In this document: positions 4,574 to 47,100 of the stretch, one piece after another
Layout of the letters: every line of letters starts with the position of its first letter
How positions within the stretch are numbered: position 1 is the first letter of the stretch
Source of the DNA: Vicugna vicugna
Lineage: Eukaryota
Reading direction: 5' to 3'
Assembly (NCBI GenBank): GCA_013265495.1
Contig: MU057640.1
Span: 505,303-569,302, forward strand
DNA length: 64,000 bases
Notes under the pieces: model-generated
Database searches by the model: none
Seen by the model: the letters and a program-made list of their open reading frames with translations, nothing else
Told to the model about the DNA's origin: nothing
Program-made: the position numbers and the translations under genes

Positions 4574-6465
4574 ACTCTAAAATAAAAGTATTGGCTATGA
4601 CCTTTGTGCTATTGTTATACATTTTATTTACACCTATGGTACAAACCTCATACTGCATAGCCATTATTTTTGTTTAGCCAATTATCTTTTGAAGAGTTTT
4701 GAATAATAATTAAAAACATGTTGTATAATTACTGATGTACTAAGCCATTTCTGATGCTCTCTGTTTCTTGGTGTAGATATATATTTGGATCTAGTATTAA
4801 TAAAGGATTTCCTTTAACATTTCTCATAGTGTAGATTTGCCAATGATTTATCCTTTCAACTTTTGTATGTCTGAAAATATCCTTAGTTTGCCTTAGTTTT
4901 TAAAAATATATGTTTGCTGGGTATAGACCCTAGATTGACAGGTTTCTTTCATCCCTTTCAGTACTGTAATGATGTTGAACCACTGTTTTCATGCTTGCTT
5001 TGTATCTGATGACTAATCATCCTTATCTTTATTCCTTTATGTGTAATGTGGGTCCTTCCTCTGGCTGCTTTTAATAGTTTCTCTTTATCACTGTTTTTGA
5101 GCAGTTTTGCTTGTGATGTTCCTTGTTACAGTCCCCCCCCCCCAGATTTCTTGTGCTTAGTTTTGTTGAGCTACTTGTAATCTGTAGGTTTATAGTTTTC
5201 ATCAGATTTTGAAAATTTCCAGCCTTTTTCCCTACAAGTATTTTTTCTTCCCTCTCTGCCCCTTAGGGACTCCAATTATACATATGTTAGGCTCTTTGAA
5301 GATGTCCCACTATGCTGTTCTCCTCCTCCTCCTCCTCCTCCTTCTTCTTTAAATTCTCCTTTCCCCATGGGTTTTATTTTGGATAGTTTCTGTTGCTGTG
5401 TTTTTAAGTGTACTGATCTTTTCTTCTGCAATGTTTAATCTGACATTAATTCCATCCAGTTTTTTTTCTTAATCTCACACATTGTAGTTTTCATTTTTAG
5501 AAGTTGAATTTGAATCTTTTAAAAAATATCCTATTTTTAGCTTTTGAACAACTGAAATACGAATAATAACTGTTTAAATGTTCTTGCTTCTAACTCTAAT
5601 ATCAGTGTCAATTCTGGTTTGTTTTCAATTGATTTTTTTCCCTCTCATTATAGGTCATATTTTCCAGCTTCTTCACCTGCCTTCTATTTTGAATTGGATT
5701 CCCACCATTGTGAATTTTACCTTGCTGGGTGCTGTATATATATTTTTATTCCTATAAATATTCTGGAGCTTTGTTTTGAGACATTGTCAAATTACTTGGA
5801 AACAATTCAAACTTTTCTTGTCTTGCTTCTAAGATTTGTTAGGTGGAACTGGAGCAGTGCTTAGTCTAGGTCTAATTATTCCCTATTAGTGAGGCAAGAC
5901 CATTCTCTATACCCTACCCAGTACTCCATGAATCATGAGGCTTTCCCAGCTTGCTGGTGGGACCAGACTTTTCCCAGCCCCCTGTGAACTTAAGGCACTG
6001 TTACGTCTAGTCTTACCAGGTGGTTCTTTCCTCAGTATTGAGTAGTTTCCTCACAAGCATGCAAGCTTAGCACTGAGCTGATTACTTGGAGAGGACCCTT
6101 TGTGGATCTCCACAGTTCTTTCTCTGTGCAGCTCTCTTCTGTTTACTATTCTGTTTCTTGAATTCTAGTCATCTGGATCTTCCCAGACTCTCAGCTCTTT
6201 CTCTTCAACTTAGACTCAGGGAGTTTTCTGGGTTCTACCCATGTTCCTCTTCCCTGTGCTGCAGTCTGAAAACCCTCTCGAGGCAGTAAGCTGGGGCAAT
6301 CATAGGGCTCATCTTTTTAGTTCCAGTGTCTCAGGGATCACTTCCCTTCATTGTCTGATGTCCAGTGTCTTAAAAACTCTTGTTTCATTTTCTTCTCTCA
6401 TTCCTGGTTTTAGGTGGGAAGGTAAGTCTGATCCTTGATACACTGTCTTAGCCAGAAACAGATGT
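4574..6465 (-). mobile_element. Continuation of the old L1M element (ORF1/5' region, degenerate)
   Basis: Antisense L1 ORF1/5' region motifs such as 'ctctggctgcttttaa' and 'gggactccaattatacatatgttagg'. Boundaries approximate. Confidence 0.75.
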
Positions 6466-13065: not shown

Positions 13066-13173
13066 GCCTCGCCCCGGGCCAGCTGTACACGTACCCTGCC
13101 CGCTGCTGGCGTAAGAAGAGACGATTGCACCCGCCTGAGGATCCGAAGCTGCGGCTGCTGGAAATAAAACCTG
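13066..13173 (+). CDS. DPF3: DPF3 coding exon (exon 3 by human numbering): (G)[35 protein letters not shown], end of the Requiem/d4 N-terminal domain with basic KKRR
   Basis: Acceptor tgtctctgtccacag|GC and donor CCTG|gtcagt; 108 nt, phase 1/1. The peptide sits in ORF 12987-13433 and is recognisable as d4-family; the [15 protein letters not shown] segment is the DPF3 version. Confidence 0.97.
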
Positions 13174-29912: not shown

Positions 29913-30040
29913 AAGTGGAGCTGCCCCTGAAGAAGGATGGGTTCACCTCAGAAAGCACCACCCTGGAAGCCTTGCTCCGCGGGGAGGGGGTCGAGAAGAA
30001 GGTGGACACCAGGGAGGAGGAAAGCATCCAGGAGATACAG
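29913..30040 (+). CDS. DPF3: DPF3 coding exon (exon 4): (E)VELPLKKDGFTSESTTLEALLRGEGVEKKVDTREEESIQEIQ
   Basis: Acceptor cttgcttttcag|AA and donor CAG|gtattt; 128 nt. Joins the previous exon as G|AA=Glu and ends in phase 0. The peptide is in ORF 29837-30094. Confidence 0.97.
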
Positions 30041-36226: not shown

Positions 36227-36322
36227 AGGGTTTTGGAAAACGATGAAAATGTAGAAGAAGGAAATGAAGAAGAGGATTTAGAAGAGGATATTCCCAAGCG
36301 GAAGAACCGGACCAGAGGACGG
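36227..36322 (+). CDS. DPF3: DPF3 coding exon (exon 5): RVLENDENVEEGNEEEDLEEDIPKRKNRTRGR, acidic stretch plus basic NLS-like segment
   Basis: Long polypyrimidine tract ending tttcag|AGG and donor CGG|gtaagc; 96 nt, phase 0/0. The peptide is in ORF 36215-36454. Confidence 0.97.
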
Positions 36323-43717: not shown

Positions 43718-43796
43718 GCCCGTGGCTCTGCGGGGGGCCGAAGGAGGCATGACGCCGCCTCTCAGGAAGACCACGACAAACCTTACGTCTGTGACA
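43718..43796 (+). CDS. DPF3: DPF3 coding exon (exon 6): ARGSAGGRRRHDAASQEDHDKPYVCD, ending after the first Cys of the C2H2 zinc finger
   Basis: Acceptor ctgtctccccag|GCC and donor GACA|gtaagt; 79 nt, phase 0/1. Translated by hand (this frame is not in the ORF track) and in frame with the preceding exon. KPYVCD is the typical start of a C2H2 finger. Confidence 0.96.
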
Positions 43797-44124
43797 GTAA
43801 GTACAACAGAGGCCGCCTTCCTGCCCCGGCCCCACTCTTCCCCGTGCTTCCCTGGTCGTCAGCCCCGTCTCAGGCTCCCCGCTCCTTCTCTGGGGCCCAC
43901 ACCACGCCTCCCTCCTCCCCACAGTCACCACCTCACCTCCTGTTGCTGCAGCTTCTGGCCCCGGTGTTTCTGCGTGAGGGAGGAGCAAGCCAGGGAGGCC
44001 TCCCCACCTCGGACGCCGTCCTGCTCTCTCTGCAGTGCCTTCCTTCGTGGCTTTCCTCCGGCTCCCTCTCTTTCACGGTCTCTGTCTCCTTAAGATTCAT
44101 CCTCTATTTCTTTCTCTGTTTCAG

Positions 44125-44166
44125 AGAGTTACAAACAAAAGCATAACTCAAAATCCTCCGACAAAG
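44125..44166 (+). CDS. DPF3: DPF3 42-nt alternative (cassette) exon: (K)SYKQKHNSKSSDK(V)
   Basis: Acceptor tttctttctctgtttcag|AG and donor AAAG|gtactt; 42 nt, phase 1/1, no stop codon. It resembles the 14-aa zinc-finger insert I recall from DPF2 long and non-mammalian DPF3 isoforms. Confidence 0.85.
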
Positions 44167-47100
44167 GTACTTGGCTCCTGTGGCTTTTCATTTGTTTCCC
44201 TTTAATTTCCTTTCTCTCGCTCTCCCTCCTGTCCTAGGTAGGGCAAGTTATGAATCTTTCTCTGACGATGACTTAGTTTAATAAATAGCCCTCGGTCCGT
44301 CTCTAGCCTTTCTTGCTTGCTTCAGAAGCATCTTTTGGCCAAGTGATTGCCTGGCTCCTGGGTTTAGGGTCAGCAGACAGGGCTGGGGAGCGACTGAGGG
44401 GCAGAGCAGCCAGGGGCACTGGTGGTGGGTGGACCTCCAGAGACCCACGGCTTCAGAGGGACTGCCGTCAGCTCGAGAGAGCTCTATCTTTCTCACCTAC
44501 CAGAGCACTGGGTGCTGGGCTGAAAATCCTTGCTCTAGTTATCTTCTCGCCAGATCGGGTACCATCTGCTTGCTTCATGGCAAGGGCAGCCCTCAAAACT
44601 GCACTCCCTGACCATCTTGCCTTCCCACCTTTTCCTCCTTGAGGATGCAGAGCGCCGCCGTGGGCGAGAATGGGGCTGCAGTGAGGATGGCAGGGCTGCC
44701 CATCTTGCCAGTGTCTGCGGTCTCTTTGAAAGCGGGAGAGAACCAGGGGAAGAAGCGGGCACAGGGAGTGTGTTGCGGGTGGTGCCATTTTCCTCCCTCT
44801 CCACTGGCCTCTTGTGATTTCAAAAAGTTGTTCTGTGCCCAGTGGGGTGGCAGCTGGTTGGAGAACATTTTGCTAGAAGAACTCAAACTCCATGACCCCC
44901 ATTTGGCTGCTTAATACACCGTGCAGATGACATTCCTGAGAGAACTCCTGCAGGTAACATCTCCATCCCGGGGCAATGCTGGTCCAGGATGAGGAGGGAG
45001 CAGGGCATGGGGTGTGGCGTCTCTTGGCAATACCAGGAAGTGCCTGCTCCCGCCTGGGTCTTGCTTCCTGGACGGGGTGCAGTTTTGTTGTGACGCAAGC
45101 ATGCTAGCCTTTGGGAGCCTGGTTCTGGGCTTGGAAGGGTCCTCAGCCCCCCGGGGAGCAGACTGTCCAGCTGTGTCTGGCCGGAGCAGCCCAGCTATCA
45201 AGAATGCCAACAACTGCTTTGGAGCTGGAGCACTGCCACGCCATTCCTCTTTCAAAAAGCTGTGTTTTCTTCGGTGATTTTCTGCTGTGGCAGATAGTGG
45301 GATTACTTCTCGCCCTCTCCTTCTAGCTTTCCCTGGATTCTCAGCCGGTAGTAATCCCAGGCACACCCGTGCGCCCTTCTCCCCCCTGCGGTCAGCTCCT
45401 CCCTTCTCTCCTTTGTCTCAGACCTCTGCCTCCTTAGTGTTTCCTCCACGAAGCACCCTTTGTGGGTGTCCCTCTTGCCGGGCTCTCCTCCTCTCCCCCG
45501 AGCTCCTGTGGCTTTGTGCAGGGACTCTCAGTGCCATTTGATGTTTACTGGTCCCCTCCCCACAGGGTCTTTTCCTCTCCCTGTTTACCCTGTGGTGCTT
45601 GGGAGGCCAGATTGCAGGCTTGATGATGTTGGCTTTCTGGAAGTCTCAGCGGCTGCCGTCTTGGCTCTGCCTGCACAGGCGCTGCCTCCCTTTTCCTCCC
45701 TCGGCAGAGCAGGGTCCACTGTGAAATGCCCTTCTCTATTCTGCTTCTCTTAGGAAATTGTGTGGCAGCTCAGTGATTAATAGACTTTATTTTTATCTGG
45801 TGCCCTTCAGACATGTGATCCTTTGGGATAGGAATGACCTTTGGAGAGGTCACGAGGCCTACCTCCCACTCCTGAACTGTGCAAGGAATGCTTTTAATAA
45901 TCTCTAATGCATCCTAAGTAGAGAGGTGTCTGGTCACCTCCTTGAATGTCCCCAGGGATGGTGTTACCACAAGCTGCCCTTTCTTCCATGATTCCAACTG
46001 TGCTTTGAATGATTGTTTTTTTTTTTTTCCTTAATAGGAGCTGAAATTTTTCTCTCCTACAGGCCCCTTTAGCTTTTGTGGATCTTTCCCCAACAAATAG
46101 GCACACTCAGCATTTCTTCTGTGCTGGAGGCCCTCTTACCATCCGCTTGTATTCTTGGTGTACCTAGAGACACAGCCCGTAATTTCTGCAATGGCCTGCT
46201 CTGAATTCCTTTCCAGGTTTAGTTTAAGCTCAGCGCTCTCATTGGAAGCAGCACCAAGGCCAAGTGGTTCAAAGAGTAACAGACACATTTCCTTGTTTAT
46301 TTTACACATCGGTTGTTAACACCACCCACGTCTGTAGGGAGTAGAAGTGACTGGCCACCCCGTTGTGCTGTGCACCGTCTCAACCCCTTCCTCCTTCAGT
46401 GCCTGTCCTGACCCCCCGGCTAATGCCTCTGCAGGTGTGTGCTCTTTTCTACTTATGCATCTGATGGTTTCTTCTTCCATAAATCACTCTGCATTCAGCC
46501 CTATTGACTCTCCATAAAGAGATACAATAATATGTGACTTCAATATACAAGATTCAATAAAGGCAAATTTAAAGACATTGCCAACTAGTTAAATTTCATT
46601 CTCCACAGATTCGCAATCCCTGCCGTTTTTGTATCGTCTGTGGTTTGATTTGCATAATCCCCACTCCATCTTTCGAGTTATTTATGAGAATATTAAGTCA
46701 CCTCGGCCCCCGCCACCCCTTTCTGGGTTTATGTTGGAGTAGTTATAGCCATTTTTCCGGTGGGATTGTGTTTAACCCTTACTGGTATATATTCCTACAT
46801 AGCTGTCCTGCTCTGTTCTCGGTCCAAGTTTCCCTTTCAAGATGGGTGGTTGAAATATTATCTTAGCTGCTAACTTCAGGTGATAGATAGTTTGCTTGTT
46901 ACCTCTCACTCAGCCATTGAATTTATTCCATCTCAGAGAAATATTAAATCATCTGAACATAATTTATTTTTTACCCAATCCGTGGTGTGTGTGTAGGTGA
47001 ATACTTCCATTTTCCAGTACGTAACCCATCTCTATTAATTATTCTGGAAGTTCACCAAGCTTCAGGATGAAAGTTCTGTTTCTTCCCTTTTAATCTTTTT

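Follow-up and report, generated by a model that had tools for sequence, protein, structure and literature searches.

An optional 42-nt exon between the zinc-binding cysteines of the DPF3 C2H2 finger and its counterpart in DPF2

DPF3 exons 3 to 6 and the cassette exon

The window, by which we mean the whole 64,000-nt stretch of Vicugna vicugna DNA analysed here, contains exons 3 to 6 of mammalian DPF3 on the + strand, together with a 42-nt cassette exon and its splice signals. Exon numbers follow those of the original prediction and of the human DPF3 gene. The features are as follows.

13066..13173, + strand: DPF3 exon 3, 108 nt, AG/GT bounds; it encodes the end of the Requiem/2-3 domain, and 36/36 residues are identical to dog DPF3 P0150 (tblastn)
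29913..30040, + strand: DPF3 exon 4, 128 nt; its named protein matches are DPF3
36227..36322, + strand: DPF3 exon 5, 96 nt
43718..43796, + strand: DPF3 exon 6, 79 nt; it ends in phase 1, past the first zinc-binding Cys (KPYVCD plus one base)
44020..44124, + strand: CU-rich polypyrimidine tract and 3' splice site, with a branch-point-like TTCAT at 44096-44100
44125..44166, + strand: cassette exon, 42 nt, phase 1/1; inclusion gives C-D-KSYKQKHNSKSSDKV-C
44167..44172, + strand: donor GTACTT, non-consensus at +4 and +5, like the DPF2 donor GTAGCT (also at +4 and +5)
44173..44237, + strand: U/pyrimidine-rich tract, with a peak at +40 to +60 (95% pyrimidine) as in DPF2, ending in TAG

The gene is the chromatin-remodelling gene DPF3 (d4/BAF45c) rather than DPF1 or DPF2 (BAF45d, ubi-d4/Requiem), because exon 4 matches named DPF3 proteins and exons 3 to 6 align with dog DPF3; the same assembly has a DPF1-like and a DPF2-like locus elsewhere, on different contigs. 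Exons 3 to 5 match pig models exactly. In the same assembly, exon 7 starts at window-equivalent position 64124, 124 bases beyond the window end and 19,957 nt from the cassette, and its first bases are TT-TGC. Among the 314 collected proteins, the exon 7 peptide is matched exactly by the camel model alone, from which exon 5 differs by one residue; this pattern fits a camelid and speaks against pig as the source. The camel DPF3 model P0189 skips the cassette.

The original prediction of an AG/GT-bounded, stop-free exon of 42 nt and phase 1/1, lying 328 nt past an exon 6 that ends in KPYVCD plus one base, was confirmed in coordinates and frame. The acceptor ends in TGTTTCAG (TTTCAG) and the donor boundary is AAG/GTACTT. 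A loose filter for AG..GT, in-frame, stop-free segments gave three candidates in 43800-63900, of which the cassette had the best donor match, 5/7 on a crude consensus count; the donors of exons 3 to 5 also score 5/7 on this count. When the dog DPF3 model P0150 was aligned to the window by tblastn, 12/12 residues were identical at 44130-44165. Other AGs surround the acceptor. The exon opens AGAG past it (44123-44128), with frame-shifting tandem AGs at +2 and +4. In the upstream tract, the AG at 44034-44035, behind a clean CU tract, is out of frame and would give a 131-nt exon, and the AG at 44093-44094 is in frame and would give a 72-nt exon that is present in no collected protein model.

Because the intron between the two Cys codons is in phase 1, skipping keeps the canonical finger and inclusion adds 14 residues between the Cys pair of the single zinc finger of DPF3 with the frame unchanged. 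In the skipped form the split codon encodes I and the finger is the canonical C-D-I-C-x12-H-x4-H, while in the included form the split codon encodes V and the spacing becomes C-x16-C. This shift from C-x2-C to C-x16-C had been predicted and was reproduced with exon 7 taken from the same assembly. The original prediction placed exon 7 correctly outside the window but gave its start wrongly as TC-TGT, an error that leaves the C-D-I-C outcome unchanged. In a sequence test against the canonical C2H2 spacing (C-x2-4-C-x12-H-x3-5-H, Pfam PF00096), the skipped form fits and the included form does not. The Pfam zf-C2H2 profile matched the skipped form weakly (E 0.013, below the cut-off) and matched none of three included forms; as a comparison of sequences, this result is a restatement of the spacing change.

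AlphaFold2 models built from 24-row alignments had a mean pLDDT of 40.2 for the included form and 35.0 for the skipped form, with the finger region below 50 in both, and are therefore too poor for use. A reference for the skipped form is PDB 3IUF, the C2H2 finger of DPF2 in a 48-residue chain, to which the exon 7 peptide matches with E 4.5e-15; none of the four matched PDB sequences is a solved structure of the included form. The included sequence C-D-K-S-Y-K-Q-K echoes C-G-K-R-Y-K-N-R of exon 7 (P0150 residues 200-223) in having a Cys, three residues and then Tyr-Lys, as if the insert mimicked the second strand of the finger, a likeness of four residues only.

Conservation of the exon and of its insert

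Both skipped and included forms exist among the protein models of other species. The 15-residue spacer of the window is identical in P0150 and P0151 (dog/dingo/wolf) and in P0200 (star-nosed mole), and the RefSeq DPF3 models XP_025298148.1 and XP_048969611.1 (Canis) and XP_012579848.1 (Condylura), which are predictions from those species, carry the same KSYKQKHNSKSSDKV. It is from these models of other species that we infer inclusion in Vicugna vicugna.

Two samples of proteins were considered. The 242 proteins obtained from exon 4 and cluster look-ups form a sample that is unbiased towards the insert and incomplete in its placental part. In 54 of them the site is not covered; of the others, 173 skip the exon, 10 show a 15-residue spacer and 5 some other spacer. 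The 10 carriers comprise 4 marsupial and 3 bird proteins, 2 from the dog family and 1 from the star-nosed mole; the last three, which are the placental ones, have the window peptide. The finger is covered by 254 of the full set of 314 proteins (180 skipped forms, 68 with a 15-residue spacer, 6 other), but this set was partly gathered by the insert query, so that its ratio of skipped to included forms is not a frequency. Further carriers obtained with the insert query came from sharks/rays, lungfish, teleosts, salamanders, frogs and additional birds, along with many DPF2 models and one protein from a hagfish. By motif, 41 of the 68 carriers are of DPF3 type and 27 of DPF2 type, and carriers named DPF3 include sharks/rays, lungfish, teleosts, amphibians, birds, marsupials, dog and mole. 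A midpoint-rooted tree of 24 insert-bearing proteins, built with no outgroup, divided, with support of 100/99, into 6 rows of DPF2 type, including the hagfish, and 18 of DPF3 type. This split is most simply explained if the exon is older than the DPF2/DPF3 duplication.

Going by these models, the cassette is a real, vertebrate-wide optional exon of DPF3. A chance pseudo-exon might be imagined from the three short AG..GT in-frame segments that passed the filter in 20 kb, but the identical peptide in other mammals' models, the homologues across vertebrates and the unique genome-wide match to DPF2 exon 7 leave this idea practically no probability, and we regard it as refuted by conservation.

The placental record of inclusion is sparse. 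The model named 'isoform X1' is usually the longest, and among 21 such placental models hand-picked from the collected proteins the exon is included in one. Exon 4, cluster, insert and short-protein queries together collected no insert-bearing DPF3 model from a primate or rodent. A search of short transcript-derived proteins with the insert gave 111 matches, comprising 2 included forms (bird DPF2), 4 skipped forms, 104 intron read-throughs or fragments and 1 match without the motif; no insert-bearing mammalian DPF3 was among them.

Neither the exon nor its effect on the finger is new: both are found in annotations of other species and have been published as a trait of the family. The available text of a 2024 article in Int J Mol Sci (PMC11678306, section 2.4.1) describes vertebrate d4 'Ins' isoforms, in which an included exon adds a conserved stretch of 14 aa between the two Cys. 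In its Table 3, the insert isoform is given for dpf3 of zebrafish (curated NP_001104639.1), medaka and frog, and for dpf2 of all vertebrate classes tabulated as well as lamprey, with curated mouse and human exon 7 isoforms of DPF2; dpf3 of mouse, human, chicken and lizard is entered there without it. The same available text contains no test of regulation or function of the insert. The novelty implied by the original prediction was thus not borne out, and as a discovery the exon is ordinary, being both annotated and published.

The insert itself is conserved as a basic segment. Across 26 distinct inserts, K6 is present in 26/26, Q5 and K10 in 25/26, and position 4 is always K or R, giving a basic core of aromatic-K-Q-K-x3-K with a net charge of +2 to +5 for the whole insert. 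The first insert residue is K here and also in dog, mole and salamanders; most other vertebrates have N, and the DPF2 of this genome has D. The insert also contains a His, which had been suggested as an alternative ligand; it would then replace the first Cys or add a ligand, creating an alternative zinc site, and the finger would not be disabled. The His is frequent (61/68 records, and His7 in 21/26 distinct inserts), but it gives way to Y or F in salamander DPF3, to R in a mormyrid fish and hagfish, and to Q in two paleognath DPF2 models, whereas the finger's own C, C, H and H are invariant and the K, Q and K flanking the insert His are better conserved than the His. We give this alternative site a small chance, and a ligand role for the His appears unlikely from these substitutions. 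Better conservation of the basic core than of the His favours a basic surface loop.

Flanking tracts, DPF2 exon 7 and candidate PTBP control

The tract upstream of the cassette is about 78-79% pyrimidine and contains 18 TCTT/TTCT/CTCT/TCTC motifs, a count reached by 0.13% of 105-nt windows in the 64 kb and at 2 of 87 acceptor-like sites, the cassette included; the motifs are enriched relative to shuffled sequence (p=0.04). The downstream stretch 44167-44237 is 79% pyrimidine, a level reached by 0.46% of 71-nt windows, with 33/71 T. It has 6 CU motifs, a count reached by 8.6% of windows and not above that expected from composition (shuffle p=0.57), so that this tract is pyrimidine/U-rich and not specifically UCU/CUCU-enriched. 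The predicted UCU/CUCU-rich tracts on both sides were accordingly found upstream, but downstream only the pyrimidine richness held. Two more acceptor-like sites in the DPF3 introns, at window positions 6214 and 58413, have upstream tracts with 23 and 15 motifs.

We also looked for TGCATG, GCATG and ACTAAY in 43830-44700 and for TGC in the 80 nt preceding the acceptor, as motifs for RBFOX, QKI and SRRM4-type control, and found none of them; their absence around the cassette gives no sign of control by these factors.

A search of the 2.03-Gb assembly with 44020-44320 gave only one other match, the DPF2 locus (81% over 63 nt, E 3e-7). The DPF2 exon 7 of this genome is likewise 42 nt long and of phase 1/1, is placed at the same site between the Cys pair, and is identical to the DPF3 cassette at 32/42 nt. 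The two exons share a basic insert and a long upstream CU tract, which in DPF2 has 16 motifs and 73% pyrimidine as compared with the 18 motifs and slightly higher pyrimidine content in DPF3. Their donors are alike in being non-consensus, and the pyrimidine content at +40 to +60 is 95% in both. The introns differ in length: the upstream one is 514 nt in DPF2 and 328 nt in DPF3, and the downstream one is 1,005 nt in DPF2 and about 20 kb in DPF3. The upstream 150 nt of the two genes align better than shuffled sequences (p=0.017). A likeness of the downstream flanks was rejected, the alignments being no better than shuffles (p=0.5, 0.27). At the DPF1-like locus of the same assembly (L002), the Cys-Cys intron is 200 nt long and G-rich, and translation revealed no counterpart of the cassette in it. 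A degenerate cassette pattern gave 0 matches in metagenome contigs.

The original prediction that DPF2 has an exon at the same position repressed by PTBP1 agrees, as to the position, with the sequence comparison above and, as to the repression, with the available part of a preprint by Nazim et al. (bioRxiv 10.1101/2023.09.10.556946). There, PTBP1 is shown to repress DPF2 exon 7 by way of CU elements that flank it, together with a weak 5' site, and the exon, whose product is DPF2-L, retargets BAF complexes in neuronal differentiation; the four mentions of DPF3 in that part concern BAF composition only. In 12 of the 13 supplementary files of PMC4755740, Dpf2 exon 7 is a top target with a dPSI of 0.75 on PTBP1 knockdown, and Dpf3 is absent from the splicing tables, appearing in the expression table only (FPKM 6-7 in NPC and motor neurons). 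The supplements of PMC10164156 list DPF2, but not DPF3 (baseMean 2084), as differentially spliced when PTBP2 is depleted. Both PTBP target tables may miss an unannotated exon; SpliceTrap is named in the table heads of PMC4755740. Neither DPF2 nor DPF3 was found in the available supplements of PMC6952364 and PMC3896118 or in the searched parts of PMC4317164 and PMC5989265. The accessible text of the review PMC11701043 has nothing on DPF3 splicing, and that of PMC9363427 nothing on the cassette. In the accessible full-text literature, we found no study of how the DPF3 copy is regulated or what it does. DPF2 exon 7 has PTBP1 CLIP, knockdown and functional data, whereas none were found for its DPF3 copy. 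By analogy with DPF2, repression of the DPF3 cassette by PTBP appears plausible.

Possible roles of the exon in placentals

Taken as a whole, the following account seems to us probable. The exon would be an ancient cassette of the d4/BAF45 family, older than the DPF2/DPF3 split and absent from the DPF1 of this genome. By homology with DPF2, it would be skipped by default through a presumably weak donor and pyrimidine tracts on both sides that may be bound by PTBP-type repressors, and it would be included in neurons, where these repressors are expected to fall. Inclusion would break or loosen the zinc knuckle and expose a basic loop, and this loop may change the partners or chromatin sites of the DPF3-BAF complex, as reported for DPF2-L. 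Inclusion in placentals is probably minor or limited to a few cell types.

It is unlikely, though well worth weighing, that the exon is real and ancient but in placentals is near-silent or under non-PTBP control, for example U-rich TIA1-type enhancement of the donor, with no neuronal switch like that of DPF2. TIA1 prefers U-rich tracts, and the T-rich downstream tract, which is devoid of CU-motif enrichment, would suit such control. The out-of-frame AGs at the AGAG exon start and the single inclusion among the 21 placental X1 models also speak for this reading, as do the mouse and human rows in Table 3 of PMC11678306, which have no insert isoform. DPF3 is further missing from the two PTBP target lists that hold DPF2 (PMC4755740, in the files available, and PMC10164156), but these lists depend on annotated exons. 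The identity of 15/15 residues in dog, mole and this genome, however, implies continued selection, and few tracts in the 64 kb are as CU-rich as the upstream one, which matches that of DPF2.

The downstream tract raises another alternative. The stretch 44173-44285 contains an acceptor-like TAG followed directly by GT, a 14-codon phase-1 frame and two stops, and could be a decoy, a recursive site or a terminal exon. If the tract were the working 3' splice site of a short terminal exon, from 44238 onward, DPF3 would be truncated before the finger is complete and the locus would carry an early-termination switch. Its parts are in order, with TAG at 44235-44237, a branch-like yTnAy at 44202, 14 codons up to a stop at 44279-44281 and AATAAA at 44280-44285, and an AATAAA within 80 nt occurs at only 2 of the 87 acceptor-like sites in the window. 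Even so, we regard this arrangement as very improbable: the peptide is found in 0 of 425 collected proteins, the feature was noticed post hoc, an intron of just 71 nt would lie between the cassette and this exon, and the flank shows no alignment to that of DPF2 beyond the level of shuffles, as given above.

We put forward a wider proposal tentatively and with more doubt than belief. Placentals may keep a largely unannotated 'DPF3-L', and a shared PTBP-timed switch may break the fingers of both DPF2 and DPF3 in some neurons, so that neuronal BAF complexes would exchange the finger for the conserved basic loop in a coordinated way in both paralogues, and among the d4 subunits DPF1 alone would always have its finger intact. 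DPF3-L, if real, has been overlooked because most placental annotations are without the exon, and splicing pipelines that depend on annotation could miss the DPF3 cassette. An intact DPF3 twin under purifying selection bears on the idea of a family-wide switch and on compensation by DPF3 in studies of the DPF2 exon; if the proposal is true, DPF3-L could buffer deletions of DPF2 exon 7.

In the protein alignment, the bird DPF3 models P0243 and P0105 have another optional basic segment, of 13 residues, between exons 5 and 6.
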